This document shows, piece after piece, positions 21,655-36,583 of a DNA stretch of 64,000 bases (within the stretch, counting starts at the first letter, position 1; each line of letters starts with the position of its first letter). Source of the stretch: Barnesiella sp. (GTDB taxonomy: Bacteria > Bacteroidota > Bacteroidia > Bacteroidales > Barnesiellaceae_A). Location of the stretch: positions 76,592 to 140,591 of the forward strand of contig JAZRIS010000001.1 of assembly GCA_045645425.1 (NCBI GenBank), read 5' to 3'. Position numbers and translations under genes: made by a program. The notes below the pieces were generated by a model. The model did no database searches. It had not been told where the DNA came from and saw only the letters and a list, made by a program, of their open reading frames with translations.

Positions 21655-22779
21655 TCATACCGATGTTTCTCGCTCAAAGATTTCTATCATCTGCGGGATG
21701 ATGTTCTCTACCGAATATTTTACGATACTCTTTTGTGCCATCATTCCCAATCGCTTTCTTTCCTCGGGGTTGCGATACAGATACAAGAATTTCTCCACAA
21801 ATTCGGCCTCGTTATTATAGGCATATAACATGCCCGTTTCTCCGTTCTTTATCAGGTCTTTATGGCCTCTTACGGTATTGGCGAGTATGGGCAATCCTAC
21901 ATACATTTCTTCGAGCAGACCTATGGGCAATCCCTCTATGAGGCTGGGCGAAACGGCCACGTCGGCAAGTTGCAGATAGGCCGATATATTGCGTTGGTAG
22001 CCGGCAAAAATCACCTTATCATCTACGCCCGACTCTTGAGCCAATCGACGGCATGACTCCATCTCTTCTCCATCTCCCAACAACAAGAGTTTGCATTGCG
22101 GTATGTGATGCTGCAATTTGGCAAGGGCTTTGATAAGAAATCTATGATTTTTGTTGCGCGTATATCGTGCTATGTATATACACACATAGTCGTCATCACC
22201 GATATGGTATTTTTTTCGCAACTCATCGCTACCTACATCACACGGGCGCTCTATGTGATTGACATCATATCCCACACCCGGCAAGCTGTATTGGTGCGCT
22301 ATTTCGGGGAAAAATTTGCGGGCATTCGTGCTATCTTCCTCGTTGATGGTTATTATCGCATCGGTACAACGTGCCATCAACTTTTCGGCGGTATAATACA
22401 CCAGCCAATTTATAAGAGGGGCGCCCTCGTAAAAGTGAAATCCATGTGCCATGTATATAACTTTCGCACCTTTACGTCGAGCTTTGAAAGAGGCCATACG
22501 GGCTATCATGGCACCTATGGGCGTGTGGCAATTTATAATATCATACTGCTCATCGTCTATGTAACGAGAGAGTTTTTTTATAGCCGATATGTTGCTGGGA
22601 TGAAAGGGTGAGCGTTTTACCGGTATATCTATCTGCCTGTTTACATAGGGAATGTCAATACCATCATTTTCCGACGCAACATCTACCATCCATCCGTCAC
22701 TTACCAACTGCTTGATATGTGGTATAAGAAACGCACGAATGTGTACATACGACGATGCTACTATCAGAATTTTTTTCAT
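21655..22779 (-). CDS. Glycosyltransferase family 4 (GT-B, GT1-type C-terminal domain)
   Basis: 374 aa. N-terminus MKKILIVASS and a C-terminal EGLPIGLLEEM (E-x7-E type) motif. Confidence 0.85.
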   Translation of the reverse strand: MKKILIVASSYVHIRAFLIPHIKQLVSDGWMVDVASENDGIDIPYVNRQIDIPVKRSPFHPSNISAIKKLSRYIDDEQYDIINCHTPIGAMIARMASFKARRKGAKVIYMAHGFHFYEGAPLINWLVYYTAEKLMARCTDAIITINEEDSTNARKFFPEIAHQYSLPGVGYDVNHIERPCDVGSDELRKKYHIGDDDYVCIYIARYTRNKNHRFLIKALAKLQHHIPQCKLLLLGDGEEMESCRRLAQESGVDDKVIFAGYQRNISAYLQLADVAVSPSLIEGLPIGLLEEMYVGLPILANTVRGHKDLIKNGETGMLYAYNNEAEFVEKFLYLYRNPEERKRLGMMAQKSIVKYSVENIIPQMIEIFERETSV

Positions 22780-22894: not shown

Positions 22895-24340
22895 TCACAC
22901 TATCAACGACGGATGTGCACCCACATAGAGGGCTGTGGCTAACAACAACACATAGAATATTGCAAATATTACTGACACACGACGTTGGCTCTTGTTGTAG
23001 GTTGCCATGCGTGTCATTACATAGGCACCCAAGACAGATAACAGGGGAACAAAACAAAACGCATAGCGCGATACAACGCCTCCTGTTACAAAGGCCGGCA
23101 CACAATAGGCTACTGCCGATGCAAGTGCCATGAGCGACACTCGCCTATCGACATCCTTGCGCCACCAATGCAGTACATAAAACACGAATATAGGTAATGC
23201 TGCCATATACCACAAGTAACTCATGCGATGGTAGGCTCCCGACATGGGCATACCAAAGGCTTCGGGAACACTCTCAAACGGAAATGGTATCATAAATTGC
23301 ACACCGGCTGTAAAGGGCAGCATAGCTATCTTGTGCCATATTGGATAGCTCGCATAGTGACCCACAAGAGCCAAAAAAGGTTTTTGACTCTCTCCATACG
23401 AGAAACTTCGATGACCACCCCCGGCCACATAATCGCTTATATACTCATTACTGCCCCACCAACTATTTTCCACACCTATCCACAGCGATATTATCGCCAT
23501 TGACATGACGACTGCAAATGGCCATATATCTCTATGCGAAAATCTATATATCCATATCACCACCATATATACAAGCAACACATATATATAGGTAGGGCGA
23601 GATAAAGACAAGACTGCCATTCCCAACAACAATACTATCATGTGCAGGGGCACTCTATATCGTTGTTTTATGGCATACATTGCATTGATACACAACAACA
23701 ACGACACTATAACAAAGGGCTCTTTCAACAGTACTGTTCCGTTGGCCATTACACCCGGCACAAGTGCGGTAATGAGCATGGCATATCCCGCCATTTGCGT
23801 GGTATAGGGCTTCTCTTTTCCCACCACATAGCACACGCATTGTCCTACCAGCAACAACACTACTTGCATCAAAAACAGATTGACTATTATGGGATATGCT
23901 ATATCTATTACACCCATATCGAGCCACAATGACAAATAGAAAGGAAATCCCATGTAGGGAACAATGGGCGAAAATTGGCCGAGCGTGTGATGCGATATAT
24001 CTTGGGCAAGACGACGAAACGAATAGGCATCATGGAGCAAAAACGGAGCCTCTACACTGCCCAGCAGCACTGTCGATTGCCACAGATTGAGTGTAAAGAA
24101 TATCGACATCATTGCAAAGGCAATGCTCAAGGCTATCTGGCCCCATGTGCTATAATACGACGAATGACGATATATAATAATAGGTATAATATAGGCAGCC
24201 AGCAATAGAGGCAATATTGTCAAGGCTCTACCACAAGGTATATAAGCAAACAACATTGTCGCAGCCAATAATACCACGGCAATAACATCTGCCACTCCTA
24301 TCCTCATTATACTTCTCATTTCCAGTACGCTATATTGCAC
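22895..24340 (-). CDS. Polytopic integral membrane protein (Wzy / O-antigen-polymerase-like or GT-C-like; unassigned)
   Basis: About 470-481 aa with 10 or more hydrophobic segments. The start is uncertain (GTG at 24340, ATG at 24319 or 24307). Lies 115 nt upstream of the GT4 gene on the same strand. Confidence 0.6.
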   Translation of the reverse strand: MQYSVLEMRSIMRIGVADVIAVVLLAATMLFAYIPCGRALTILPLLLAAYIIPIIIYRHSSYYSTWGQIALSIAFAMMSIFFTLNLWQSTVLLGSVEAPFLLHDAYSFRRLAQDISHHTLGQFSPIVPYMGFPFYLSLWLDMGVIDIAYPIIVNLFLMQVVLLLVGQCVCYVVGKEKPYTTQMAGYAMLITALVPGVMANGTVLLKEPFVIVSLLLCINAMYAIKQRYRVPLHMIVLLLGMAVLSLSRPTYIYVLLVYMVVIWIYRFSHRDIWPFAVVMSMAIISLWIGVENSWWGSNEYISDYVAGGGHRSFSYGESQKPFLALVGHYASYPIWHKIAMLPFTAGVQFMIPFPFESVPEAFGMPMSGAYHRMSYLWYMAALPIFVFYVLHWWRKDVDRRVSLMALASAVAYCVPAFVTGGVVSRYAFCFVPLLSVLGAYVMTRMATYNKSQRRVSVIFAIFYVLLLATALYVGAHPSLIV

Positions 24341-24515: not shown

Positions 24516-24523
24516 TATCTTTG
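24516..24523 (+). promoter_or_regulatory. -7 promoter box TATCTTTG for the six-gene lipoprotein operon
   Basis: Exact TAnnTTTG match, 49 nt upstream of the ATG at 24572. The ORF-track TTG start (24521) lies inside this box and is therefore unlikely. Confidence 0.55.
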
Positions 24524-24571
24524 CCAGATATTTTATATAGCAAACTTGAATGTTATTTAAAAACTAAACCT

Positions 24572-27103
24572 ATGATTAGAAAAAAATTAGGAATTTTTCT
24601 TTTCGCAGGATTGTTATCTCTCACCGTGTCATGTAACAAAGATGCAGAGAGTCCAACCCTCGGAAAAGGTAGTTTTGCTCTTTCTCTATCTACCAACGAA
24701 GAGGTAGTGCCGGTATTGAGAAGCGAAACACAAACACAATCGGTAGAAACTCCAAGTGTCGAAGATTTTCGTTTATCTATGAGCAACGAAAACGGAACAT
24801 TCTCGCGCCAATGGAGCAGTATCAACAACCTCAAGCCCGAAGATACTTATGACATAGGCAATTACACTCTCAAAGCCGAGTATGGTTCTATCGAAGAGGA
24901 AGGTTTCAAAACTCCCTACTATGTGGGCGAAACAAAGTTTGCCATTCGCGACCACGAAACGACTCAAGTAAGTCTTTTGTGTGCTCTGGGTCATGTCAAG
25001 CTCACACTCAATTACACCGAGTCTTTCCGCAAATACTTCTCTAATTATGAGGCTACTGTTCGCTCATCGGCCGGCAAGGATGTGGTTATAACCAAGAGCG
25101 AAACACGCGACGCATACTTGCGACCCGGCGATATATCATTGAAGTTGCAACTTACCAAGGCCAATGGCGTATCGGCAACTTTTGAGCCTGCCAAAATCAA
25201 GGATGCCAAGGCTCGCGAGCACTATATTGTCACATTGGACGTGTCAGAAAAAATAGGTGAAGCTATCCTCACTATTGTTTTTGACCAAGCTACCGAGCTT
25301 GCTCCCATCACTATCAACGTGTCGGAGGAGGCTATGGTTGCCCCTGCTCCATACATCATTTTGGATGGTATTACCAATGGTGGCAGCATCGAGTTGCAAG
25401 AGTGCAGTACTCCCGACAATGGCCTGCTCAATGCCGCTATCACTGCAAGAGGTGGCTTGCAATCGTGTACTTTGACAACGCAATCGGCCTACTTGCAATC
25501 GTTGGGCTTTTCTGAGGTTATCGAACTCACAGCTTTGACAACCGAACAGACTCATTTGTTTGAAACTTTAGGATTTGAAGTGAAAGGTTTTGGCAGCAAT
25601 CGCGCCGAAATGGCTATCGTCAATTTTGCTACGCTCACGCCTTCTCTGTTAATTCCTCAAGGTGGCGACAACAAGCATCAATTTACTCTTACTGCTACCG
25701 ACAAGAACGGCAAAGTATCCGACCCCGTTTCTTTCACCATTGTCAGCACTCCTCTCTCCTTGTCTTTGGGCAAAATTGACGATGTGATGATGGGTAGCAC
25801 AAGTATTGATGTGCCTGTGACATTTGATGGCAAGGATATGTCAAGAATGAAGATTATGCGCCTCAACGGCAATAGCAGCTTGTCTATACCCTACACCATC
25901 AAGTCGAACAATGGCAACAACTATATCCTCACTGCCAACTTGGATGTAGAAAATAAATCACAAACGCTTTTCCTCTCTTATGCCGGATTTAAAGAGAGTA
26001 GCAAACAACCCGTAAACATCATTGTTCCTCAATACACTATCAACTTCCCGCCTGCCGATATATGGCACAATCGTGCAAGTTTTGTAGTGAAGGCAGTCGA
26101 TGCCACACACCAACAAGTTGTTGAGAAATACATCAAATTTTATGTAAAGGAAAACAATAATTGGAAAGTATTCACTCCCGAAACCACAAGCCAAGGATAT
26201 AAAATATCGGGACTATCGGCCGGTCGTTCTTATGAATTCAACTCTTCATGTCTTGCCGATGCTGCCGACTTGAACAACAATACTTCTATCAGTATCGTTA
26301 CAGAGGCTCCCTTGGCATTGCCCAACCCCAACTTCGATTCTTGGACTCAATGGTTCTCCAAAGAGATAAAAAAAGGTGGCAGATATGGTGATGCTCCTGC
26401 CGCATGGGTACAAGAAACACAAACCCTTACATCGAGCGATCCCCAAGGATGGGCTACTGTCAATAGCAAGACTCTTCCCACCTCGCCCTCTACCGAGAAT
26501 ACTTGGTACATGGTGCCCTCTACCCTCCCCATAGCAGGTATCGATGGCAATGCCGCCATGTTGCGCAATGTGGCTTGGTCTAACAACGGAAGCACTCCTC
26601 CGCAAGGTTTGTGGGGTGTCGATCAGTCATTAAACAGCCTTAATGTACCCTCTATCTCCAATCGCAGTGCCGGAAAACTGTTCTTGGGCTCATACAATTA
26701 CAATCACGGAACAGGTGCCGAAACTTACAACGAGGGTATCAGCTTTACATCGCGTCCCAGCAAGTTGTCGGGTTACTACAAATATACTGCAAAGGGTAAT
26801 GACTCTCATGGTACTGCCCAAATCGTTGTAGAACATCGCACAAGCAATGGCGAAGTAATAACATTGGCTACGGGCAATATGGCTCTCTCTCCTATCGCCG
26901 ATTTTACTTACTTCGAAATACCTATCAATTATAGCAACGTTGCATACAAAGCCACTCACTTGAGAGTTATGTTCACATCAAGCAACCATGCTTCGTACAA
27001 CGCAGCTTCCGAAACACAGAATATCGTTACTGTCAATAACAAATCACAAGCCGTATCTACCGGTAGCGAATTGTGCCTTGACAACCTAACACTTACATAT
27101 TAA
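24572..27103 (+). CDS. Large modular lipoprotein A: DUF4493-like N-domain, Ig/FN3-like middle, PCMD-like C-terminal domain
   Basis: MIRKKLGIFLFAGLLSLTVSC|NKDAES lipobox. N-module motif PYYVGETKFAI...C...VKLTLNY is shared with B and C. C-module has SAGKLFLGSY...SRPSKLSGYYKY and ends ...LCLDNLTLTY. Confidence 0.8.
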   Translation: MIRKKLGIFLFAGLLSLTVSCNKDAESPTLGKGSFALSLSTNEEVVPVLRSETQTQSVETPSVEDFRLSMSNENGTFSRQWSSINNLKPEDTYDIGNYTLKAEYGSIEEEGFKTPYYVGETKFAIRDHETTQVSLLCALGHVKLTLNYTESFRKYFSNYEATVRSSAGKDVVITKSETRDAYLRPGDISLKLQLTKANGVSATFEPAKIKDAKAREHYIVTLDVSEKIGEAILTIVFDQATELAPITINVSEEAMVAPAPYIILDGITNGGSIELQECSTPDNGLLNAAITARGGLQSCTLTTQSAYLQSLGFSEVIELTALTTEQTHLFETLGFEVKGFGSNRAEMAIVNFATLTPSLLIPQGGDNKHQFTLTATDKNGKVSDPVSFTIVSTPLSLSLGKIDDVMMGSTSIDVPVTFDGKDMSRMKIMRLNGNSSLSIPYTIKSNNGNNYILTANLDVENKSQTLFLSYAGFKESSKQPVNIIVPQYTINFPPADIWHNRASFVVKAVDATHQQVVEKYIKFYVKENNNWKVFTPETTSQGYKISGLSAGRSYEFNSSCLADAADLNNNTSISIVTEAPLALPNPNFDSWTQWFSKEIKKGGRYGDAPAAWVQETQTLTSSDPQGWATVNSKTLPTSPSTENTWYMVPSTLPIAGIDGNAAMLRNVAWSNNGSTPPQGLWGVDQSLNSLNVPSISNRSAGKLFLGSYNYNHGTGAETYNEGISFTSRPSKLSGYYKYTAKGNDSHGTAQIVVEHRTSNGEVITLATGNMALSPIADFTYFEIPINYSNVAYKATHLRVMFTSSNHASYNAASETQNIVTVNNKSQAVSTGSELCLDNLTLTY

Positions 27104-27110
27104 TCACATT

Positions 27111-28361
27111 ATGAAAAAGGTATTATATTCATTTATCATTATATGCCTCTCGGTAGCATTGGCTTCGTGTCACAACGAAAAATTTCCTACCGATGGCAAC
27201 TCAACAGGTACAGTTGATTTATCAACCATAAACGTAAGTTGTGACTATGACGTTGAAGTATTGCGTAGCACCAATATCGACAATTTCATTGTCACCATCA
27301 TCGAGAAATCGAGCAATAACACCATCAACCAATGGAGTTATAGCAAGATGCCCGAAGTATATACCCTCACTGCCGGCTCATACATCTTGAAAATCGAGTC
27401 GGGCTCTCTGCAAGATGCTGCTTGGGACTCTCCCTACTATGCCGCCGAAAAGGAATTCCAAGTGAATGTGGATAAAATTACTGCCATAGGCGATATGGTG
27501 TGCGTATTGAAAAACGTAAAAGTAACCGTTGAGTTTAGTCAAGAACTCTTGGCCGTACTTGGTAATGATGTTAAGGTAAACGTTGCGTTGGGCAAAGGTC
27601 AGCTCGACTTTAAGAAAGACGAAACTCGTGCCGGATATTTTGCTGTTGAAGAAGTCAATAACCGACTTTATGCCTACTTCTCGGGTAGCGTCGATGGCTA
27701 TGTTGATGAAATATACAACGAATATGATGATGTCAAAGCCGGACAATGGCGTATCTTGCGCTATTCGCTCAAACAAAACGACACTCCCAATGTCGAGAAC
27801 GGCTCTTTTGTCGCCGATCTATCGGTAGATGTTTCTTGTAACGTCGTAGAAAAAGACGTACAAGTAGATGTGAATGAGGATGTCATAGAAGACCCCAATC
27901 CCGAGCCTCAACCCGGTGAAGAGCCCGGAGAAAACCCCGGTGATCAACCCGGCGAAGAGCCTGCCAATGGCCCCGTTATCAAAGCTACTACATTCAATAT
28001 CAAAGAACCTCAAATCATTACTCCCGACTTGATTATACAAGTTGTCGTAACAAGTGAACAACCTTTGACCTCACTTGTTGTTGATATTGACTCGGAAACA
28101 TTGACTCCTGCCGAGTTGGAGAGCGTTGGCTTGGCTGCTCATTTCGACCTTGCCAACCCCGGCGATTTGCGTGGCTCGCTCGAAGGTTTGGGCTTCCCCG
28201 TTGCCGAGAATGTAGTGGGCAAACAAGAACTTTCGTTCGACATCACTCCCTTTGCCGGCCTTTTGGCTATATTGGGTAGTGGCTCACACAACTTCATCCT
28301 CACTGCTACCGACAATGCCGGTAACTCTTCAACCGAAACATTAACCCTTATAGTTCAATAG
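27111..28361 (+). CDS. Lipoprotein B: DUF4493-like N-domain, Pro/Glu-rich linker, Ig-like C-domain
   Basis: Lipobox VALASC|HNE, motif PYYAAEKEFQV...C...VKVTVEF, linker EDPNPEPQPGEEPGENPGDQPGEEPANGP. The start is 7 nt after A's stop. Confidence 0.8.
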   Translation: MKKVLYSFIIICLSVALASCHNEKFPTDGNSTGTVDLSTINVSCDYDVEVLRSTNIDNFIVTIIEKSSNNTINQWSYSKMPEVYTLTAGSYILKIESGSLQDAAWDSPYYAAEKEFQVNVDKITAIGDMVCVLKNVKVTVEFSQELLAVLGNDVKVNVALGKGQLDFKKDETRAGYFAVEEVNNRLYAYFSGSVDGYVDEIYNEYDDVKAGQWRILRYSLKQNDTPNVENGSFVADLSVDVSCNVVEKDVQVDVNEDVIEDPNPEPQPGEEPGENPGDQPGEEPANGPVIKATTFNIKEPQIITPDLIIQVVVTSEQPLTSLVVDIDSETLTPAELESVGLAAHFDLANPGDLRGSLEGLGFPVAENVVGKQELSFDITPFAGLLAILGSGSHNFILTATDNAGNSSTETLTLIVQ

Positions 28362-28365
28362 TAAG

Positions 28366-30489
28366 ATGAAACGATATAACAAAATATTTTCTCTATTGCT
28401 TGTCTTCCTATCGCTTATAGGATTTATGTCATGCAAAGACGACTCGAACAATGTGGGCGAGGGTCGTTTAACATTGGGGATGCACGTTTCTGTTCCTCCT
28501 CAAAAAGGTGTAGAAGAGAGCGCACAACAACAAGCTGCCGATATGCTTGCCGATAGTTGTCGTGTGAGAATATACAATAGCAAAGGTCTTATTCGCTACT
28601 ACAAGGGTCTTAACAATGTACCCGACAACATGATGTTGGCAACAGGCGACTATCGCATCAAGGCTGTTACAGGCGACTCTGTTCCTGCTACTTTCACTAT
28701 GGGATATTATAGCGGAGAGAGCAATTTTACCATTGAGGCGGGTAAGACTACAAATGCCGAGGTTACTTGCAAGATTGTCAGCACCTTGGTAACAGTATCT
28801 TTTGCCGATGCGTTGCAAGATATCCTCACCGACTACAAGGTAACCATTGCTTCGCCCAACGCTTCTCTCGTATTTACCCACAATCACATCGATTCTATCG
28901 GTTACTTTATCCTGCCCAAAGATTGCACCCAACTCAGTTGGGCTATCGAAGGCTTGCGCTCCGATGGCAACACATATACTCAATCGGGTATCTTGCAGAA
29001 TGTCAAGCCGGCTATGAAGTACAACCTCAAGTTTGATTACAACGAGTCGGAATACAATCAAGGTGGTGCATACTTCAATCTCTTGGTCGATGAGCGCACG
29101 GTCGAAATGACCAATAACATTGTCATTTACAAGCGCCCCAGCATCACAGGTCTTGATTTTGACATTACTCGCCCCATCGTATTCGAGGAGAACTCGGGCG
29201 ACAACTTGTCGGTATATATCAACGCCTCTTCGGCTCTATCGCAAGTTGTTGTTTCGGCCGACAATCTCCAAGAAATGGGCTTCCCTGCCAACTCGGTAGA
29301 TTTTGTTGCCGCCAGCGAGATTACCCTCAACACTTGGGCGATGGCCGGATTGTCTTATCGCTATGAATATGACAGCGACAATGATATATCGGTTGCCAAG
29401 CTCACCCTTGCAGCGTCTCTCATCAGCAACCTCAAACAAGGCTCTTATATCATCGCTATTCGTGCCGCCGACATGCACGGTAAGGAATGGACCGAGCAAC
29501 TCAATATCACTATCTCCAATGCGGTTGTTATGACCGAGCAACTTATCCGTAGCGAGATTTGGGCCAAACGTGCAACCCTCAGAGGTAGCATTTTGCGTGA
29601 AACCGACGAGCCCTATTCGTTCCAATACCGCATCAAAAACGATGCTACTTGGACAAGTGTCGATGCTACTCGCAATGGCAACTCTATAACTGCTCAAATC
29701 GGCAATCTCACTCCCGGTAAGACTTATGAGTATCGTGCCGTTTCGGGCACTGTTCCTTCGGCTGTTACAATGGAATTTAACACCGAGAGTGCATTTGTTA
29801 TTCCCAACGCCGGATTTGAAAATTGGCACATGGATGGCAAGGTATTGCTCGTTTATGGCAGTGGCGAAGAGAAATGGTGGGACAGCGGTAATCATGGCTC
29901 ATCGACCCTCGACAAGAACATTACCACACAAGACACCGAGCTCAAGCACAGTGGCAAGTCTTCTATCAAGATGAAATCGCAATTTGTTGGTTTGGGTACC
30001 GTTGGTAGATTTGCTGCCGGTAACGTCTTTGCCGGAGTATATGCCGAGACAAAGGGTATGGATGGTATCTTGGACTTTGGTCGCCCCATCAATTCTCGTC
30101 CTTCCAAGCTCAAAGGTTACTACAAATATGTGACCGGTGAGGTCGATTATTCAAACACAGACGCCCTTCCCAAAGGCTCTCCCAACGATGTTGGTAGCAT
30201 ATACATTGCATTGGGCGATTGGGACGATCCTGTCCGCATCAACACAAAAACAGGAACTGTGTTTGACAAAAACGACGAGCATGTGATAGCTTATGGCGAG
30301 ATTATACAGACATCCAATACTCCCGAAGAAGGCCTCATACCTTTCACTATCGACATCGACTATCGTTCAACCGACCGCATCCCCACATATATTCTCCTTG
30401 TGGCTTCGGCAAGTTTCTATGGCGACTTCTTTACCGGTAGCTCACAAAGTACCATGTGGCTCGACGACTTGGAACTTGTATATGAATAA
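28366..30489 (+). CDS. Large modular lipoprotein C: DUF4493-like N-domain, FN3-like module, PCMD-like C-terminal domain
   Basis: Lipobox LIGFMSC|KDDSNN, motif GYYSGESNFTI...C...TLVTVSF, FN3-like NLTPGKTYEYRAV. C-module has FENWH..., FAAGNVFAGVY and SRPSKLKGYYKY, and ends ...MWLDDLELVYE. Confidence 0.8.
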   Translation: MKRYNKIFSLLLVFLSLIGFMSCKDDSNNVGEGRLTLGMHVSVPPQKGVEESAQQQAADMLADSCRVRIYNSKGLIRYYKGLNNVPDNMMLATGDYRIKAVTGDSVPATFTMGYYSGESNFTIEAGKTTNAEVTCKIVSTLVTVSFADALQDILTDYKVTIASPNASLVFTHNHIDSIGYFILPKDCTQLSWAIEGLRSDGNTYTQSGILQNVKPAMKYNLKFDYNESEYNQGGAYFNLLVDERTVEMTNNIVIYKRPSITGLDFDITRPIVFEENSGDNLSVYINASSALSQVVVSADNLQEMGFPANSVDFVAASEITLNTWAMAGLSYRYEYDSDNDISVAKLTLAASLISNLKQGSYIIAIRAADMHGKEWTEQLNITISNAVVMTEQLIRSEIWAKRATLRGSILRETDEPYSFQYRIKNDATWTSVDATRNGNSITAQIGNLTPGKTYEYRAVSGTVPSAVTMEFNTESAFVIPNAGFENWHMDGKVLLVYGSGEEKWWDSGNHGSSTLDKNITTQDTELKHSGKSSIKMKSQFVGLGTVGRFAAGNVFAGVYAETKGMDGILDFGRPINSRPSKLKGYYKYVTGEVDYSNTDALPKGSPNDVGSIYIALGDWDDPVRINTKTGTVFDKNDEHVIAYGEIIQTSNTPEEGLIPFTIDIDYRSTDRIPTYILLVASASFYGDFFTGSSQSTMWLDDLELVYE

Positions 30490-31267
30490 CATTCTTAAGA
30501 CATTGATGCTGACGATATTGCTCCCGGTATTTACTGCCGGAGCAATATCTGTGTCGGCTCAACAACAAGAGATTATTACCGATACTACCCTACTCGACAC
30601 TCCCCCATCGCGCGGTCTTAAACAACACACGTTTGTACCCAAAGGTCAGTGGATTGTGGGAGGTACCATTTCCTACTCTCAACAGAGCGAGCGCAACTAT
30701 CAGTTTCTCGTTGTCGAGGGTATCGATGGTGTGGGTTATAGTTTCAATGCAAGCCCTATGTTCAGTTATATGATAGCCGACAATATGGGCTTGGGTGGTC
30801 GTTTTTCTTATGGCCGCTCGCTTGTGAGAATTAACTCGGCCGACATCAACCTCAGCCCCGACCTCAATCTATCGGTCAGCGACATTTACAACCTCAGTCA
30901 CACATACACCGGTATGGTTGTCCTGCGCAATTATATCAGTATAGGCAACAATATGCGATTTGGCCTTTTCAATGAGACTCAGTTGCACATTGGTGGTGGG
31001 CAAAGCAAGTTGGTGAGTGGCAGTGGCGACAACATCACAGGCAGCTACGAAACGAGTTTCTCGGTGGGACTCAATTTGGCTCCCGGTATCACGGCTTTTT
31101 TCAATGACTTTGTGGCTGTCGAGGTAAATGTGGGCTTGTTGGGATTTAAATATACCAGCACGCAACAGATTACCGACCAAGTCTATGAGGGTAAAACCCA
31201 CACAACTACGGCCAATTTTCAGATTAATTTATTCTCAATAGGATTGGGAGTGGCTTTCTATATATGA
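30482..31267 (+). CDS. Small outer-membrane beta-barrel protein D
   Basis: The ATG at 30482 overlaps C's stop by 8 nt. Signal peptide ends ISVSA|QQQ. Amphipathic strand pattern; C-terminus ANFQINLFSIGLGVAFYI is paralogous to E. Confidence 0.7.
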   Translation: MNNILKTLMLTILLPVFTAGAISVSAQQQEIITDTTLLDTPPSRGLKQHTFVPKGQWIVGGTISYSQQSERNYQFLVVEGIDGVGYSFNASPMFSYMIADNMGLGGRFSYGRSLVRINSADINLSPDLNLSVSDIYNLSHTYTGMVVLRNYISIGNNMRFGLFNETQLHIGGGQSKLVSGSGDNITGSYETSFSVGLNLAPGITAFFNDFVAVEVNVGLLGFKYTSTQQITDQVYEGKTHTTTANFQINLFSIGLGVAFYI

Positions 31268-31274
31268 TGTTGTT

Positions 31275-32105
31275 ATGAAAAAGATGATGTGTATAATTGT
31301 CCTTGCGACAATAATGTGTGTTGTCAATACAACAACGCTATGGGCCTCACAACCCTATACAACTGCACTATCTGCTGCAAGCGACTCTATAAGTGGCACA
31401 ACAATAGATAGTGACGAAAAGAAAAATGTCCGTAAGTTTCAACGCGGTCTTACCAATTACAGTTTCATTAAGAAAAACGAGTGGATATGCGGTATTACCG
31501 CCTCATACACAGGATTTACAAGTGACGAGAGCGACTTGTTGTTGCTTGTCAAAGACTTCAACTTTACAGGCTCGCTATTTGGTGTCGATCCCTTTGTCGG
31601 CTATTTTGTCACCGACAATCAGTGTGTGGGTGTCAAACTTGGCTATTCGGCTACCAAGGGCAATTTAGGCAATTTCTCTCTCGATGTTATCGAGGGTATG
31701 CCCATAGCCCTCAGCAACCTCGAATATAATGCTCAATTCTACTCGGCCGGTATTTTTCATCGCGCCTATTTGGGATTGACTCATAGCGGACAGTTGGGTC
31801 TGTTCAACGAAACAAATCTCTCTTTCCGCAGTGGTGTAAGCCACTTTATAAGGGGTAATGAAGATGGTAGTTCTACCGACACCAAGACTCTCTCCAACGA
31901 GATTATCTTGGGTCTTTCGCCCGGTATTTCGGTCTTTATCATGGACAATGTCAGTGCCAGCGTTTCGGTGGGCATTTTGGGCCTCAGCTACAAGCACAAC
32001 AAACAATATGTCGAAGATGTGATGACCGGCGAATTTATTTCGAGCGGTGCCAATTTCCAGATTAACATCCTCAACATTAACATCGGTATTACTGTTCATA
32101 TATGA
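31275..32105 (+). CDS. Small outer-membrane beta-barrel protein E (paralog of D)
   Basis: 276 aa with a signal peptide. Shares G(L/I)FNETQL/NL..G and a C-terminal ANFQINILNINIGITVHI with D. Confidence 0.7.
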   Translation: MKKMMCIIVLATIMCVVNTTTLWASQPYTTALSAASDSISGTTIDSDEKKNVRKFQRGLTNYSFIKKNEWICGITASYTGFTSDESDLLLLVKDFNFTGSLFGVDPFVGYFVTDNQCVGVKLGYSATKGNLGNFSLDVIEGMPIALSNLEYNAQFYSAGIFHRAYLGLTHSGQLGLFNETNLSFRSGVSHFIRGNEDGSSTDTKTLSNEIILGLSPGISVFIMDNVSASVSVGILGLSYKHNKQYVEDVMTGEFISSGANFQINILNINIGITVHI

Positions 32106-32123
32106 TAGTTGATTGCTGATACA

Positions 32124-33686
32124 ATGAAAAGAAGAATATACAACATACTATGCCTCATGATGGCTCTATTGGCCTTTGTCGGATGTATCGAAAACGATAT
32201 ACCCTATCCTCGCATCCCCGCTCAAATACTTTCGGTCGAGGCCAATGGCTTGTTGCAAGCTCCGGCCATTGACAATGAGGCTCAAACTGTGAAGTTGGTA
32301 CTTGCCGATACGGTAAACCTCAAACGTGTCACTATCACTCAGGCTACTATTACCGACGAGGCTACGGCTTCTCCGTCAATAGTGGGCACTCACGACTTTA
32401 CAAGCCCGGTCGAGTTTACGTTGTCGCTTTACCAAGACTACCGCTGGACGATTGAGGCTTCGCAAGAAATTGAGCGTACAATATCTGTTGTAGGGCAAGT
32501 GGGCAATGCCATTATCGAGGCCAAATACAAGCGTGCCCGGGTTTTTGTCAATGAGCGCATAGACCTCTCGCAAGTCGAGTTCACCTCATTGCAATTAGGT
32601 CCCAAGGGCATTACCTCCTACTCGCCTACTCTATCACAATTACACGACTTCTCTCACGGGCCTCGTCAGGTAGAGGTTAGATACCACGACATCGTTGAGC
32701 AGTGGACTATATATGTCATTCACACCAAGAGCAATGTAACTCTCTCGTCGGTTGATGCGTGGACATGTGTAGCTTGGCTATACGGCAACGGATTGGAGCA
32801 AAACGACAACCGTTTTGAGGTGCGTGAAGCTTCTGCTACCGAGTGGACTGAAGTACCGGAGGAGTATATGGTAGAGCGTGGCAGTACTTTCTCGGCTCGA
32901 CTCATACACCTCAAGCCCAACACTCAATATGTGGCGCGTGCCGTTATCCCCGGCGAGACCAGCAATGAGATTGCCTTCACTACCGAGGGCGAGGTACCCC
33001 TGCCCAACGGAGGTTTTAATGATTGGTGGAAAGATGGCAGTGTGTGGAATCCGTGGGGCGAAAACGACACTCAATGGTGGGATACCGGCAACAAGGGTGC
33101 CTCTACCATGGGTGAGTCTAACACCATACCCACCGATGATGCGATACAAGGCAAAGCGGCTATGTTGCAAACCAAGTTTGTCGGCATAGGCGGATTGGGC
33201 AAACTTGCTGCCGGAAATATCTTTGTCGGCAGATTTGGCCGTGTGGAGGGTACCAATGGTGTCATACACCTTGGTCAGCCATTCAACCACCGCCCCACCA
33301 AGCTCAAGGGTTACTACAAGTACCGCACAGGTCTTATAGACCAAGCCGAGAAGGGTATGGAATATCTCAAAGGCAAGACCGACAGCATGTCGATATACAT
33401 CGCTCTTGGCGACTGGAACGAGCCGGTAGAGATACGCACCAACCCCAACAATCGCAAGCTCTTTGACATCAACGACCCGCACATCATTGCCTATCAAGCT
33501 ATCATTACGAGCGAAGAGAAAAGCGAATACACGCCTTTTGAGTTGGAGCTTGAGTATCGTTCTACTTCTCGCATCCCTAATTACATTATTATCATTGCAA
33601 GCAGTAGCAAGCTGGGCGACTTCTTTACGGGCAGTACACAGAGTGTATTGTATGTCGATGAGTTCTCGCTCGAATGGGACTATTGA
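32124..33686 (+). CDS. Lipoprotein F: Ig-like N-region, FN3-like module, PCMD-like C-terminal domain
   Basis: The ATG at 32124 gives MKRRIYNILCLMMALLAFVGC|IENDIP. FN3-like LKPNTQYVARAV. C-module has GGFNDWW..., LAAGNIFVGRF and HRPTKLKGYYKY, and ends ...LYVDEFSLEWDY. Confidence 0.8.
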   Translation: MKRRIYNILCLMMALLAFVGCIENDIPYPRIPAQILSVEANGLLQAPAIDNEAQTVKLVLADTVNLKRVTITQATITDEATASPSIVGTHDFTSPVEFTLSLYQDYRWTIEASQEIERTISVVGQVGNAIIEAKYKRARVFVNERIDLSQVEFTSLQLGPKGITSYSPTLSQLHDFSHGPRQVEVRYHDIVEQWTIYVIHTKSNVTLSSVDAWTCVAWLYGNGLEQNDNRFEVREASATEWTEVPEEYMVERGSTFSARLIHLKPNTQYVARAVIPGETSNEIAFTTEGEVPLPNGGFNDWWKDGSVWNPWGENDTQWWDTGNKGASTMGESNTIPTDDAIQGKAAMLQTKFVGIGGLGKLAAGNIFVGRFGRVEGTNGVIHLGQPFNHRPTKLKGYYKYRTGLIDQAEKGMEYLKGKTDSMSIYIALGDWNEPVEIRTNPNNRKLFDINDPHIIAYQAIITSEEKSEYTPFELELEYRSTSRIPNYIIIIASSSKLGDFFTGSTQSVLYVDEFSLEWDY

Positions 33687-33724
33687 GAGGCTCATATAGA
33701 GCAATAGAGCTCTTATCTATACAC

Positions 33725-33760
33725 ACGCACCCCACTGCCACAACGAGCAGTGGGGTGCGT
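33725..33760. terminator. Bidirectional terminator shared by the two convergent operons
   Basis: ACGCACCCCACTGC pairs with GCAGTGGGGTGCGT (14-bp perfect stem, 8-nt loop). Confidence 0.75.
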
Positions 33761-33784: not shown

Positions 33785-34462
33785 TTAGAAGGTTACACCC
33801 AAATTGAGGCTCCAAGCCAAGCCAAAATCAAATCCATGATAAAGTGTCACGTCTTGACCATAATTGTGCCATTCACCTTCTATAAGCAAATCGCGCGCCA
33901 TGAGTCCGGTAGAGAAATAGAGGCTGTAATCGCCATCGGTGCGGAAGTTCAAGCCAAACACAGGATTGACAAAGAAACACGATGGATTGTAGCTCACATC
34001 GGGAGCATTTTCAACCTCCTTCGAACCGGTCAAGTGTCCACCTATCGAGAAGGCAAAGAAGGGTTGGCAACGTGTGTCGGTAAAGTACAATCGTGCGTGC
34101 AAATAAAGAGGTATCGAGATAAGGTTATGACTCACACCAAAATTTCCATTTTCAAAATCATCTGATGGATATCCCCGGTCTGAATCTTCATAAATATAGT
34201 TGAAGTTGATACCAATACCCGCACCAAGGAAGAAAAGATTGCTGAAACGATAACCTCCTATGTAGTTGATACCTACATAGTTTGTTTCATCATCATTATC
34301 ATCGAAATTGGTTGCCACAGGCAACTCTATCGACTGCTCATACCCTGCCTCAAAGGCCTGCTTTTCTTTCACGGTAATGGTTTGCGCAGCCGTGATAAGC
34401 TGTGCCGACACCATCATAGGCAACAGTACTACTATGGCACTTAATAGCAATTTTCTACACAT
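33785..34462 (-). CDS. Paralogous small beta-barrel-type secreted protein G1
   Basis: 225 aa. Signal peptide ...MVSA|QLITAAQTITVKEK, strand-like motifs RFSNLFFLGAGIGINF, TDTRCQPFFAFSIGG, YNPSCFF, terminal ...LNLGVTF. Confidence 0.75.
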   Translation of the reverse strand: MCRKLLLSAIVVLLPMMVSAQLITAAQTITVKEKQAFEAGYEQSIELPVATNFDDNDDETNYVGINYIGGYRFSNLFFLGAGIGINFNYIYEDSDRGYPSDDFENGNFGVSHNLISIPLYLHARLYFTDTRCQPFFAFSIGGHLTGSKEVENAPDVSYNPSCFFVNPVFGLNFRTDGDYSLYFSTGLMARDLLIEGEWHNYGQDVTLYHGFDFGLAWSLNLGVTF

Positions 34463-34495
34463 AGTTTTGTCTTATCTTTTTGATTTATCTATTTT

Positions 34496-35170
34496 TCAGA
34501 ATGTTACACCTACACTCATCTTCATGGCTATACCTTCACCCATGTCATGATTTACATACGTTTCTTTATCAACGGGATCATAATATACCGTATATACAAT
34601 ATCACGTATCATGCAACCCACGGTCAAATACATACCCAACTTATCGTTTAGTTGATAGTTTACACCCAACTGCGGATTTATCATAAAACACGACGGATTA
34701 TAATACGCCTTATGGTACTTAGCATCTTTACGTCCGGTTACCTGTCCACCTACCGAGAGTGCAAAAAATGGCTGACAACGGGTATCGGTAAAATACAATC
34801 GAGTGTGCAGATATATCGGCACAGATACCAAGTTTTCGGGGCAGTCGCTACAATAAAGTCCATATACGTCGCTATAACTCAAATCAAAATCGTAACTATA
34901 AGAGTGAAAGTTAATACCAATACCGGCACCGAGAAAGAAAAGGTTACTGAAGCGAATACCTCCTATATACTCCAAGCCATATACGCTTCTATCACCACCC
35001 TTATCTTCAAAGTCGGTTGCATCCGTAAACTCTATCGATTGTTCGTAATGCAGTGGTTTTGCCGGCTTCTCTTTCACGGTAATGGTTTGCGCAGCAGTAA
35101 TAAGCTGTGCCGAGGCTACAGCCGGGAACATTAACGCTACAATTAATGCGATAAAGACTCTTTTTCTCAT
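34496..35170 (-). CDS. Paralogous small beta-barrel-type secreted protein G2
   Basis: 224 aa. Signal ...VASA|QLITAAQTITVKEK, same conserved strand motifs, terminal ...MSVGVTF. Confidence 0.75.
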   Translation of the reverse strand: MRKRVFIALIVALMFPAVASAQLITAAQTITVKEKPAKPLHYEQSIEFTDATDFEDKGGDRSVYGLEYIGGIRFSNLFFLGAGIGINFHSYSYDFDLSYSDVYGLYCSDCPENLVSVPIYLHTRLYFTDTRCQPFFALSVGGQVTGRKDAKYHKAYYNPSCFMINPQLGVNYQLNDKLGMYLTVGCMIRDIVYTVYYDPVDKETYVNHDMGEGIAMKMSVGVTF

Positions 35171-35182
35171 AATATTTCATTC

Positions 35183-35860
35183 TTAGAACGTTACACCAAG
35201 ATTAAGACTCCAAGCAAATCCAAATTCATAATAAAGTTCTACGTCTTGTCCATAATTATACCACGCACCTTCAATAATCAAATCGCGAGCCATAAGGCCG
35301 GTTGAGACATAGAAATCGCAATTACTATTGGTGCGGAAGTTCAAGCCAAACACAGGATTGAGAAAGAAACACGATGGATTATACGACACATCTTTAGCAC
35401 GTTCAACCTCCATCGAACCGGTCAAGTGTCCGCCTATCGAGAAGGCAAAGAAGGGTTGGCAACGCGTGTCGGTAAAATACAATCGTGCGTGCAAATAAAG
35501 AGGTATCGAAATCAAGTTGTGGCGTAATCCGAAGGTTCCTGAGCCATCATAATAATCACTTGGATAACCCCAAGTGAAATCTTCATAGAAATAATTGAAG
35601 TTGATACCAATACCCGCACCCAAGAAGAAAAGGTTGCTGAAACGATAACCACCGATATAGTTGATACCTACATAGTCTGTTCCATCATCCTTTTCATCAA
35701 AGTTGGTAGCAAAGGGCAGTTCAATCGACTGCTCATATCCTGCCTCAAAGGCCGGCTTCTCTTTCACGGTAATGGTTTGCGCAGCAGTAATAAGCTGCGC
35801 CGATGCTACTGCAGGGAGTAGCAAAGCAACAATCAATGCGATAAAAATAGATTTTTTCAT
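35183..35860 (-). CDS. Paralogous small beta-barrel-type secreted protein G3
   Basis: 225 aa. Closest to G1, with differences clustered in short patches. Terminal ...LNLGVTF. Confidence 0.75.
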   Translation of the reverse strand: MKKSIFIALIVALLLPAVASAQLITAAQTITVKEKPAFEAGYEQSIELPFATNFDEKDDGTDYVGINYIGGYRFSNLFFLGAGIGINFNYFYEDFTWGYPSDYYDGSGTFGLRHNLISIPLYLHARLYFTDTRCQPFFAFSIGGHLTGSMEVERAKDVSYNPSCFFLNPVFGLNFRTNSNCDFYVSTGLMARDLIIEGAWYNYGQDVELYYEFGFAWSLNLGVTF

Positions 35861-35872
35861 AGATATATAATT

Positions 35873-36583
35873 TTAGAATGTACAACCTATACTTGCCTTG
35901 AGATAAGGCATCATAATGTACGATATTTCCATGTGATCGCAATAAGGCTCGGCTTGGAACCAACAAGCTACATTGAGATACATCGAAAAGTTATTTCCAC
36001 ATCGCCAATTAACACCAACTGCCGGAGCAACAAGAAATCCGATACGACTATATTCGGCCGATTTACCCGTATATTCCCAATAATAACTATTATCCATAAA
36101 ATCTACGGTGGCTTGTGACGAAAATCTCACACCCATTGATGCTGAGAAAAATGGCTGAACACGACCTTTACCAAGATAGGCACGCACATGCGCATATAGA
36201 GGCACATTAATTACAGATTTAAGTAATAGTCCTCGCTCTTGATTTCCAAACTTTGTGTACGAATTATCATTATAATTACTCGAATCAATGTCGTAATATA
36301 AACCAATACCGGCACCAACAAAGAGTGTGTTATTAAATCTATAACCACCTATATAATCGGCGCCAAATGCAGGTGTAAAATGTAAACGATCTCCATCCAT
36401 GAAAGCCAAATCGGTAATACCTAAAAAATATAGCTCTACCGATTGTTCATAACCGGGTTCAATAGCAGAAAGTATTTTTTTCTCCTTTACCGTAATGGTT
36501 TGCGCAGCAGTAATAAGCTGCGCCGAGGCTACAGCCGGAAATAGAATGGCTACAATAGCACATATAATCAACTTGACTTTCAT
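35873..36583 (-). CDS. Paralogous small beta-barrel-type secreted protein G4 (most divergent)
   Basis: 236 aa. Same signal and mature N-terminus ...VASA|QLITAAQTITVKEK. Lacks the two Cys found in G1-G3. Terminal ...ASIGCTF. Confidence 0.7.
   Translation of the reverse strand: MKVKLIICAIVAILFPAVASAQLITAAQTITVKEKKILSAIEPGYEQSVELYFLGITDLAFMDGDRLHFTPAFGADYIGGYRFNNTLFVGAGIGLYYDIDSSNYNDNSYTKFGNQERGLLLKSVINVPLYAHVRAYLGKGRVQPFFSASMGVRFSSQATVDFMDNSYYWEYTGKSAEYSRIGFLVAPAVGVNWRCGNNFSMYLNVACWFQAEPYCDHMEISYIMMPYLKASIGCTF

Follow-up and report, generated by a model that had tools for sequence, protein, structure and literature searches.

The locus raises the question of what six closely spaced genes, encoding four modular lipoproteins and two small predicted beta-barrels, build at the surface of a Bacteroidales cell. 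It lies in a window of 64,000 nt, the whole stretch of DNA analysed, from Barnesiella sp. (GenBank assembly GCA_045645425.1, contig JAZRIS010000001.1). The answer preferred here, to which about an even chance is given, is a putative glycan-directed surface adhesin complex, present across Bacteroidales and docked on a platform formed by the two barrels.

Operon structure and conservation

Genes A, B, C, D, E and F are all encoded on the plus strand. Intergenic gaps, in order, are 7, 4, −8, 7 and 18 nt; these spacings and the gene coordinates, listed already in the preliminary description, were reproduced from the open reading frames. The database copy of D (P0001) has 253 aa; the start of D may lie 8 codons further downstream, giving a 16-nt gap in place of the C/D overlap. 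A candidate Bacteroides-type −7 promoter box (consensus TAnnTTTG), TATCTTTG, was read directly at 24516..24523 (plus strand), ahead of the six genes as described before; 48 nt separate it from the ATG start codon of A. Sigma-70-type promoter scans are uninformative in Bacteroidota. The closing hairpin was likewise found, at 33725..33760 (plus strand): terminator-like, with a 14-bp stem (10 G-C pairs) and an 8-nt loop, followed by CTATTTTATA. It lies between F and G1, which are convergent genes.

The six-gene unit is a real operon, its order retained in many gut Bacteroidales species; the recurrence of the same order in dozens of species puts it beyond chance. In a neighbourhood survey of 80 species genomes, D-E-F was found in all of them wherever the contig had room. 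A-B-C, assessable in 69 genomes, adjoins D-E-F in 53: collinear in 48, rearranged or partial on the contig in 5 (L034, downstream; L071 and L073, divergent; L040 and L060, partial). In 16 genomes D-E-F stands without A-B-C, beside housekeeping genes. Homologs of B that are 30–35% identical and carry an extra BACON domain occur in the same six-gene order. D-E-F linkage is constant from family to family, with entirely different genes on either side. D-E-F is an invariant core and A-B-C a detachable add-on, a new finding. The earlier view of one co-conserved module holds as to co-conservation and needs revision as to unity, two sub-modules being present.

Lipoproteins and their PCMD heads

Lipoprotein F (520 aa; 32124..33686, plus strand) has its lipidated Cys21 followed by a highly conserved IxNDIPYP segment; CIkNDIPYP is at least 80% conserved over 80 orthologs. 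Two Ig-like repeats (aa 3–103; best stretch aa 29–103, nt 32208–32432, plus strand) are followed by an FN3-like domain and a PCMD (aa 298–516, nt 33015–33671, plus strand; Pfam 2.3e-46). Lipoproteins A, B and C share an N-terminal DUF4493. A (843 aa; 24572..27103, plus strand; lipobox Cys21) consists of DUF4493 (aa 31–251, nt 24662–25324; 3.8e-43), an Ig-like middle region and PCMD (aa 613–809, nt 26408–26998; 5.3e-9). B (416 aa; 27111..28361, plus strand; lipobox Cys20) consists of DUF4493 (aa 32–253, nt 27204–27869; 3.5e-40), a P/E-rich linker (aa 256–284) and a C-terminal Ig-like domain (aa about 286–416). C (707 aa; 28366..30489, plus strand; Cys23 followed by KDD) consists of DUF4493 (aa 31–254, nt 28456–29127; 2.4e-42), an Ig-like and FN3-like region and PCMD (aa 484–705, nt 29815–30480; 1.3e-39). 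All these DUF4493 and PCMD matches exceed the Pfam gathering scores, which establishes both family assignments of the preliminary description; FN3-like Pfam matches are sub-threshold and occur in C only.

The four lipoboxes quoted earlier, TVSC-NKDAES (A), LASC-HNE (B), FMSC-KDDSNN (C) and FVGC-IENDIP (F), are read in the translations, and every shared-module motif is present: PYYVGETKF, PYYAAEKEF and GYYSGESNF in the N-terminal module; AGKLFLG, AGNVFAG and AGNIFVG with RPSKLSGYYKY, RPSKLKGYYKY and RPTKLKGYYKY in the C-terminal one. By blastp, A aligns with B over A aa 2–383 (2e-11) and with C over the DUF4493 region (3e-9); C aligns with F over about 360 aa at 37% identity (6e-70). In all four lipoproteins and their orthologs the lipobox Cys is followed by acidic residues, as had been pointed out for A, C and F; this agrees with the Bacteroidota lipoprotein export signal. 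A, B and C are probably accessory lipoproteins, predicted to be surface-exposed.

PDB 8a9y chain T, presumably a levan-utilisome surface glycan-binding lipoprotein, starts with two Ig-like repeats that align with F aa 3–103 (E = 3e-7). The depositors named this chain a DUF4960 protein. This homology between the F N-terminus and the repeats of that lipoprotein, found by sequence comparison, is new. The operon lipoproteins share with the SusE/F-positioned glycan-binding lipoproteins of SusCD utilisomes a lipidated N-terminus, acidic residues past the Cys, Ig-like spacers before a C-terminal beta-sandwich head, and presumed docking beside an outer-membrane barrel. They differ in that the head is PCMD, not DUF4960, and the partner barrels are small. 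The PCMD has structural-genomics homologs in 3hbz, 3s30, 4jrl and 4het, deposited as 'putative glycoside hydrolase', with full-length alignments for C and F (E from 2e-5 to 1.5e-16). These are stand-alone PCMD lipoproteins of about 350 aa, whereas the operon PCMD forms the head of much longer modular proteins. In the searched library PCMD occurs solely as an annotation label and DUF4493 has no mention, in agreement with the earlier statement that the function of the operon is undescribed.

With its pair of Ig-like repeats, the FN3-like domain and a beta-sandwich head formed by PCMD, F resembles in architecture a surface glycan-binding protein, its putative role. Glycan binding by PCMD is likewise putative, suggested by the beta-sandwich head, the family name and the BACON domains in some B homologs; we know of no PCMD domain with a known ligand, so it rests on analogy.

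Unlike SusCD utilisomes, the operon has no SusC (a 22-strand TonB-dependent transporter), SusD, glycoside hydrolase or sensor/regulator: a Pfam scan of the six genes and ten flanking ORFs found neither these nor an HTCS or ECF regulator, as previously reported. The lipoproteins could still be glycan-binding helpers of a SusCD pair encoded elsewhere, with the barrels unrelated and merely co-transcribed. BACON and PCMD typically occur in Bacteroidales proteins that handle glycans at the surface, and some Bacteroides loci have a SusC-like gene with an ECF sigma/anti-sigma pair 4–6 kb downstream. However, the downstream SusC is not conserved beside the operon (loci L005 and L006, and the present window), and D-E-F linkage is invariant across families despite complete turnover of the flanks. 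Hardly any weight is given to this explanation.

Predicted barrels D and E

D (30482..31267, plus strand) is a signal-peptide protein of 261 aa, predicted to form a small, long-stranded beta-barrel in the outer membrane; conserved motifs are RGLxxxxF(V/I)PKGQW at the N-terminus and ANFQINLFSIGLGVAFYI at the C-terminus. E (31275..32105, plus strand) is a 276-aa paralog, 30% identical to D (blastp, 6e-27). Both have ANFQIN C-termini. Orthologs of E carry variable, low-complexity N-terminal extensions. D and E are adjacent in all surveyed loci, and in P0332 a D-like and an E-like barrel are fused into a single protein.

AlphaFold2 models D as a barrel made up of long hairpins (mean pLDDT 79), with 9 strand segments by DSSP, the last of low confidence and the strand count uncertain. 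The best Foldseek matches are the 8-stranded barrels OmpA, TtoA (3dzm), OprG, OmpW, OmpX, Ail and NspA; because TM-scores are low (0.3–0.56), D is assigned to the general barrel class only. Weak OMP_b-brl matches occur in 16 of 53 relatives. The earlier proposal of small outer-membrane barrels is borne out by the model of D and its matches, and D/E are predicted to be paralogous barrels of about 8–10 long strands, of OmpA/OmpX/OmpW/TtoA type. As in OmpX and TtoA, in which long strands protrude, the strands of D are predicted to do so. Unlike the known 8-stranded barrels (OmpA N-domain, OmpX/Ail, OmpW/OprG, Thermus TtoA), D and E score below the gathering threshold of every Pfam and NCBIfam model, form a fixed paralogous pair whose operon always includes a PCMD lipoprotein, and carry the N-terminal RGLxxxxF(V/I)PKGxW motif, with the low-complexity extensions in some relatives.

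In the adhesin complex, D and E would stand side by side in the outer membrane as a protruding platform, not a pore, and F would be the obligate barrel partner, docked via its invariant N-terminal segment CI(K/E)NDIPYP. Gene linkage suggests that all four lipoproteins may dock on D/E. Counting against it, most Bacteroides surface lipoproteins reach the surface without a dedicated barrel, which leaves two barrels unaccounted for.

D/E may instead be a dedicated translocon or assembly factor, Slam-like in function, that moves the large lipoproteins to the surface rather than holding them. As in the Neisseria Slam system, an outer-membrane barrel gene is linked, here strictly, to surface-type lipoprotein genes, and the conserved N-terminus of F directly after the lipidated Cys could act as a recognition signal. 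Slam is a 14-strand barrel (DUF560) with a periplasmic TPR domain, and no Slam homology of the operon proteins was found by Pfam or by Foldseek of D. The predicted D/E barrels are of the small OmpA/OmpX class, whose lumen is too small for a polypeptide (Slam barrels have 14 strands, autotransporter barrels 12), and hundreds of Bacteroides lipoproteins with the export signal are surface-exposed without operon-specific barrels. In favour of a translocon, PMC13655056 still calls the step that sorts lipoproteins of this phylum to the surface unknown. The translocon is considered improbable.

A TonB-independent uptake device, with D/E as substrate-specific diffusion channels (cf. OmpW/OprG, KdgM/NanC) below PCMD lipoproteins that capture the ligand, would be a passive counterpart of the SusCD utilisome. 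F has the architecture of a utilisome glycan-binding lipoprotein, and OprG and OmpW are among the fold matches of D. The operon, however, lacks genes for any enzyme, any periplasmic binding protein, any inner-membrane transporter and any regulator; the long strands and tight hairpin turns of the D model suggest a protruding platform; and eight-stranded barrels pass small hydrophobic molecules only, ill-suited to lectin-type heads. This function is very improbable.

Predicted pilin-like base of A, B and C

The preliminary description had recorded pilin-like genes as absent. This stands for sequence families: pilin Pfam families gave no match among 61 DUF4493 proteins even at E = 1, and pilin structures were absent from a profile search of PDB sequences. 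For fold the absence is doubtful, because the B model best matches the type V pilin superfamily and a conserved Arg has the layout of the pilin cleavage site. The top Foldseek matches of that model include 3pay, 5cag, 4h40, 3r4r, 4qdg, 3gf8 (DUF1812), 3t2l, 4rdb, 3up6 and 3ufi, which we take to be members of this superfamily, with probability 1.00 and the top TM-scores of the list (TMq 0.26–0.30, DUF4493 being only 54% of the query). Gram-positive pilins and complement MG domains, which are likewise tandem beta-sandwich proteins, reach similar Foldseek E-values.

DUF4493 N-termini consist of the lipobox Cys, a first strand GxGx(L/V)xLx(V/L) and a loop in which [TS]-R-[AS] is conserved, about 27–35 residues past the Cys. 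The loop Arg is Arg50 in A (VLR|S, beyond the first strand), present in most A orthologs, and Arg52 in B, kept in 46 of 49 orthologs; of 50 C sequences, 36 have Arg and 3 Lys at this position, and C of the window and its closest relatives are without it. The pilin-like fold of B and the loop Arg in A–C orthologs, a new finding, suggest putative Arg cleavage.

A type V pilus-like assembly would accommodate these features. A–C would be tip- or adaptor-type pilins whose loop is cut by an Arg-specific protease after the lipidated first (anchor) strand; strand exchange would give a short heteromeric fibre or stalk with PCMD heads, anchored via F or D/E instead of an Mfa2/FimB-type anchor pilin. Type V pili (FimA/Mfa1 stalk, Mfa2/FimB anchor, Mfa3-5 tip/adaptor) likewise have lipoprotein precursors, and, as in tip pilins, a pilin-like base would bear an adhesive head. 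Within the B model, pLDDT is below that of the core at the Arg loop and in the final two strands of DUF4493. Known pilins have the same layout and Cys distance, with an anchor strand and, between beta1 and beta2, a loop that contains the Arg46/Arg49 cleavage site (PMC13655056). Donor strands are missing from tip and adaptor pilins (PMC13655056), and tip pilins can bear globular heads (bioRxiv 10.1101/2024.11.15.621889).

Against the assembly, besides the null pilin searches, the missing Arg in the window's C and the similar E-values elsewhere, genes for stalk or anchor pilins are missing from the operon, and its proteins have no evident C-terminal donor strand: A, C and F end in the last strand of the PCMD sandwich, B in the last Ig strand. 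The 16 genomes with D-E-F alone are without any DUF4493 gene. DUF4493 has about 225 aa, whereas type V pilins have roughly 300–550 aa. The unit also contains a pair of dedicated barrels, and its fourth lipoprotein has no pilin-like base. The pilus-like assembly is considered unlikely.

In the adhesin complex, the base of A–C would be a membrane-proximal DUF4493, a tandem beta-sandwich of type V pilin-like fold in the one model (of B), bearing spacers, followed in A and C by a PCMD head and in B by an Ig-like domain. With no TonB-dependent transporter, enzyme or regulator, import and degradation would fall outside its role. The complex would show putative lectin heads at the cell surface, with which the cell would adhere to a glycan ligand or capture it.

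Structure, conservation and neighbourhood of the operon

The operon consists of six co-directional genes on the forward strand (ORF listing): A at 24572-27103, B at 27111-28361, C at 28366-30489, D at 30482-31267, E at 31275-32105 and F at 32124-33686. Gaps from A to F are 7, 4, -8, 7 and 18 nt. A, B, C and F are lipoproteins; D and E are predicted small outer-membrane barrels. The candidate promoter box TATCTTTG is located at 24516-24523, 48 nt 5' of the start of A. The hairpin at 33725-33760 has a stem of 14 bp and a T-rich tail after it. Gene direction and spacings agree with the preliminary description, and the box, the closing hairpin, the four lipoboxes and all motifs quoted there are present in the sequence or its translations. 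No convincing pair of inverted repeats, a sign of phase variation, is found around the promoter, and an invertible promoter is therefore rejected.

Barrel D has 1349 database relatives, with copies 47-57% identical in named Bacteroides species. Individual Bacteroides alleles occur on 650-850 metagenome contigs each. The barrel family comprises 272 clusters, defined at 50% identity, at E <= 1e-30 and 676 at E <= 1e-10 (exhaustive profile search); the barrel is C-terminal in all except a few among the matches listed. A one-genome-per-species scan confirms the family at at least 578 of 600 candidate stretches, including Bacteroidaceae, Barnesiellaceae, Tannerellaceae, Muribaculaceae, Rikenellaceae, Odoribacter and Prevotellaceae.

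Eighty fetched loci were scanned with purpose-built HMMs for the barrel, DUF4493, the C-terminal domain of B and PCMD. A-B-C is collinear with and immediately 5' of D-E-F in 48 of the 80 genomes. It is otherwise arranged, or only partly on the contig, in five (downstream in L034; divergent in L071 and L073; partial in L040 and L060). D-E-F stands alone in 16, each with no less than 6.3 kb of sequence upstream; these are mostly Muribaculaceae, where housekeeping genes, e.g. FtsH, lie upstream. The contig is too short for a call in 11. D-E-F is found in every surveyed locus (n = 80) where the contig leaves room. The operon is an invariant core, D-E-F, with a detachable accessory set, A-B-C.

Six-gene order is kept with distant B homologs (30-35% identity) that have added BACON domains. 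Bacteroides loci from human-gut metagenomes have the identical order, between a PPDK_N-type gene and gdhA/malic enzyme. B. thetaiotaomicron BT_1971-1976, guessed from this gdhA/malic-enzyme neighbourhood to be the operon, was rejected; BT_1971 is a catalase. Chance co-location of the six genes is ruled out by the kept order, and their co-conservation, which the preliminary description had left to comparative genomics, is thereby established. Flanking genes vary from family to family while the same unit is kept; the operon is thus self-contained. It is real and widespread in Bacteroidales.

Families Plug, TonB_dep_Rec and SusD have no match in the six proteins or in ten flanking ORFs (9.6-43.3 kb of the window). 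No glycan-degrading enzyme, HTCS, ECF/anti-sigma or SusR gene is present in the operon. An ECF/FecR/SusC set lies 3' of the operon in some Bacteroides loci and is not conserved. Because the SusC/SusD pair is missing, the locus is not a canonical PUL, as had been proposed from the sequence.

Upstream flanks in the window are an S9 peptidase, an ATPase, a DUF4923 protein, a glycosyltransferase and a membrane protein; downstream flanks are barrels, an MFS transporter and a tRNA methyltransferase. An efflux gene is also among the flanks. The S9 prolyl oligopeptidase gene, at 16225-18336 (+), lies about 6 kb upstream of the operon; in the Bacteroides loci L001-L006 such a gene occupies position 1 to about 480 (-). 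The shared gene reflects residual synteny; a functional link is not evident. The DUF4923 (lipocalin-like) gene is located at 20153-21298 (-). Such a gene occurs near the operon in the window, in 16 of 86 HMM-scanned loci and, by Pfam, in L087, across several families (L079, L087, L010-L015, L037, L047, L059, L066, L071, L073, L075, L082, L083); it lies less than 10 kb from the operon, often within about 3 kb, with variable position and strand. The gene directly upstream of the operon and divergent from it, at 22895-24340 (-), encodes a protein of 481 aa that has numerous hydrophobic stretches and matches no Pfam family at 1e-5. It adjoins a group 1 glycosyltransferase gene (21655-22779); both are absent among called genes of the Bacteroides and Muribaculaceae loci examined.

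Four tandem signal-peptide paralogs of about 225 aa, 37-78% identical, are located at 33785-36583 (-) and point toward the operon terminator; L007, the closest relative locus, has three. Three of the four have weak OMP_b-brl matches, and two of these three score no more than about 0.2 bits away from the gathering score. Fourteen other loci, all having D-E-F but no DUF4493 genes within the fetched sequence, encode a different small OMP_b-brl barrel after F, in the same orientation. Taken with the window paralogs, these suggest that small barrels may be recurrent companions of D-E-F.

Domain families, barrels D and E and lipoprotein F

Pfam assigns DUF4493 (PF14900) to A, B and C (E = 3.8e-43, 3.5e-40 and 2.4e-42; 148.3, 138.7 and 145.8 bits; nearly the full model in each) and PCMD (PF13201) to A, C and F (E = 5.3e-9, 1.3e-39 and 2.3e-46; 36.6, 136.8 and 158.8 bits). 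All scores exceed the gathering scores of 27 bits (PF14900) and 28 bits (PF13201), and both families, named in the preliminary description, are thereby confirmed. DUF4493 is matched by all 61 B homologs. FN3-like matches in C are below threshold only. The sole NCBIfam match among the six proteins is that of a lipobox region to the PG1828 lipoprotein family. The claim of shuffled modules holds in pairwise BLASTP: C and F share about 360 residues at 37% identity, the paralogs D and E are 30% identical (6e-27), and aa 2-383 of A align with B, whereas the alignment of A with C covers the DUF4493 region.

PCMD is homologous to the structural-genomics PDB entries 3hbz, 3s30, 4jrl and 4het, none with known function. 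PDB sequence searches with D, the B-family profile and A gave nothing informative. No discussion of DUF4493 was found in the literature searched, where PCMD appears, with one exception, as an annotation label only; the named domain families and barrels of the operon are functionally undescribed there. A PCMD protein of B. caecimuris is reported to be a CD4 T-cell (Treg-inducing) antigen in OMM12-colonised mice (bioRxiv 10.64898/2026.09.23.753882), so the host can see proteins of such kind.

The AlphaFold2 model of D (53-sequence alignment, mean pLDDT 79) has a signal peptide, a disordered segment and a barrel of long, tight-turned hairpins with strands of 19-26 residues. Its PDB matches (Foldseek) are OmpA, TtoA (3dzm), OprG, OmpW, OmpX, Ail and NspA, at low TM-scores that place D by class only: it is probably a small barrel of 8, at most 10, strands. 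The earlier proposal of small outer-membrane barrels agrees with this model. D and E remain under every curated threshold (Pfam, NCBIfam): D reaches only 14 bits with OMP_b-brl_2, whose cut-off is 27, and weak OMP_b-brl matches occur in 16 of 53 relatives (best 3e-5). Neither D nor E matches PF11751 (T9SS PorP/SprF); one relative does so sub-threshold (0.014). D and E share the motif RGLxxxxF(V/I)PKGxW ahead of the first strand and an ANF(K/Q)IN C-terminus.

P0332, a metagenomic protein of 449 aa, carries a D-like barrel followed by an E-like barrel, possibly as a gene-calling artefact; as a fusion, it supports a physical pairing of D and E. No Rosetta-stone fusion of a barrel with a lipoprotein domain was found; long relatives carry just low-complexity extensions. 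Such N-terminal extensions of 150-340 residues occur in E-type barrels of L059, L071, L073, L034, L060 and L038 (Muribaculaceae and other relatives) and of P0270, where the extension is K/A/P/E-rich, and P0294. They have no Pfam domain and are most simply read as periplasmic.

Barrels of such size have no lumen for proteins or oligosaccharides, and this favours a role of D and E as platform or anchor over transport. A dedicated lipoprotein translocon formed by D and E would suit two barrels encoded among four lipoproteins, and is very unlikely given that lumen. A passive uptake channel would suit an outer-membrane barrel pair beside glycan-binding-type proteins; with no passage for oligosaccharides, it is highly improbable.

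Residues 3-103 of F, two Ig-like repeats, match (E = 3e-7) the N-terminal pair of such repeats in chain T of PDB 8a9y. This DUF4960 protein is presumably the surface glycan-binding lipoprotein of the levan utilisome. By this match F is built like a SusE/F-positioned glycan-binding protein. An alternative reading, in which the lipoproteins serve as accessories of a SusCD pair encoded elsewhere, is highly improbable. The segment CI(K/E)NDIPYP directly after the lipidated Cys of F is at least 80% conserved over 80 orthologs. Such conservation is unusual in a lipoprotein tether and suggests a specific contact.

Lipoproteins A, B and C and the pilin question

The model of B (mean pLDDT 83) comprises a tandem beta-sandwich, a P/E-rich linker and an Ig-like domain, with about 19 strands in the DUF4493 region. 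The last two DUF4493 strands (aa 237-254) have pLDDT of about 55-61 versus >90 in the core, and the P/E-rich disordered linker follows them (aa 237-284 in all, window 27819-27962); this may be an element that packs loosely and could be exchanged. The top matches by TM-score, at Foldseek probability 1.00, are 3pay, 5cag, 4h40, 3r4r, 4qdg, 3gf8 (DUF1812), 3t2l, 4rdb, 3up6 and 3ufi, all ten of which we take to be type V pilin superfamily structures. Their TMt is modest, at 0.32-0.42, and similar E-values are obtained with other proteins of tandem beta-sandwich build; the predicted DUF4493 fold is suggestive of a pilin.

The lipobox Cys (Cys21 in A, Cys20 in B, Cys23 in C) is conserved in 49 or 50 orthologs of each. 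In the ortholog alignments it is followed by an acidic linker, a first strand GxGx(L/V)xLx(V/L) and a variable loop with [TS]-R-[AS] about 27-35 residues past the Cys. The loop Arg is present in most orthologs of A, in 46 of 49 orthologs of B (Arg52) and in 36 of 50 orthologs of C, three further ones having Lys; it is missing from the C protein of the window and its three nearest relatives. Conservation of this Arg lends independent support to the pilin-like fold. In type V pilins the beta1-beta2 loop is cut at Arg46 (FimA) or Arg49 (Mfa1), after the lipidated anchor strand (PMC13655056). Most orthologs of A, B and C have this layout of an N-terminal strand followed by an Arg loop, and their Arg would be a candidate site of cleavage.

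Pilin Pfam families (P_gingi_FimA, Mfa_like, Mfa2/DUF1812 and others) have no match in 61 DUF4493 proteins at E up to 1, and a PDB-sequence profile search with the B family returns no pilin. No stalk or anchor gene is present in the operon (Pfam, six proteins). No C-terminal donor strand is visible: the DUF4493 modules are followed by further folded domains, and each protein ends in the last strand of a PCMD or Ig domain. Failing on donor strand, stalk or anchor gene and family membership, the locus does not qualify as a canonical type V pilus locus. The preliminary description had seen no pilin-like genes; this stands for family matches, stalk, anchor and donor strand, but is doubtful in view of the B model fold and Arg layout. 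C-terminal donor strands are needed by stalk and anchor pilins. Tip and adaptor pilins have no donor strands (PMC13655056), and tip pilins may bear globular heads (bioRxiv 10.1101/2024.11.15.621889).

In Rikenellaceae, gene A is shrunk to a DUF4493-only lipoprotein of 249 aa, and an additional lipoprotein of 588-597 aa is encoded ahead of it (L033, 4360-6126; L055, 4354-6147; L069, 4333-6111; L072, 4334-6112). The extra protein has the same N-terminal layout (Cys, then GKVRVTIK, then SRTS) and no Pfam, NCBIfam or PDB match. In a search of the fetched loci for bona fide pilin genes, just this unclassifiable lipoprotein was found.

Strand-exchange assembly of a true type V-like kind would account for the fold and the Arg loop, lacks a visible donor strand and is unlikely; it overlaps with the platform model set out below. 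DUF4493 lipoproteins as an unrecognised type V pilin branch, matured at the Arg and assembled by strand exchange on the D/E pair in place of an Mfa2/FimB anchor, are decidedly unlikely.

Proposed assembly and relation to known surface systems

In the preferred model, D and E would form a paired barrel platform in the outer membrane. F, a lipoprotein of glycan-binding design, would be their obligate partner. A, B and C would be accessory stalked lipoproteins with a pilin-fold base, A and C displaying PCMD heads and B an Ig-like domain. The putative surface complex would serve glycan-directed adhesion or capture, without import. As a whole, this model stands at about an even chance.

With SusCD-associated glycan-binding lipoproteins the operon shares the Ig-like repeats and design of F, but it has no SusC/SusD. 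With type V pili, A-C share the lipobox Cys; the loop Arg of most orthologs and the predicted base fold are suggestive, and a stalk, anchor or donor strand is missing. The D/E pair belongs to neither system, and no curated family covers the barrels. Operons of domains with unknown function are common in Bacteroidales, and this one is at odds with nothing in current understanding. It is akin to lipoprotein-barrel complexes of the cell surface and to adhesins of pilin fold, and its function is undescribed.

The operon joins traits of the phylum's two main surface systems with a barrel pair found in neither. If the pilin reading of DUF4493 is true, it would be a new surface-fibre or stalked-lectin architecture common to many gut Bacteroidales, with the first dedicated outer-membrane component for type V-like assembly. 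The complex, if real, would represent a new class of adhesin or lectin display and a defined system in which to study how large lipoproteins are retained at, or assembled on, the Bacteroidota surface. The operon may be relevant to the way in which the outer membrane retains type V-like and surface lipoprotein assemblies.
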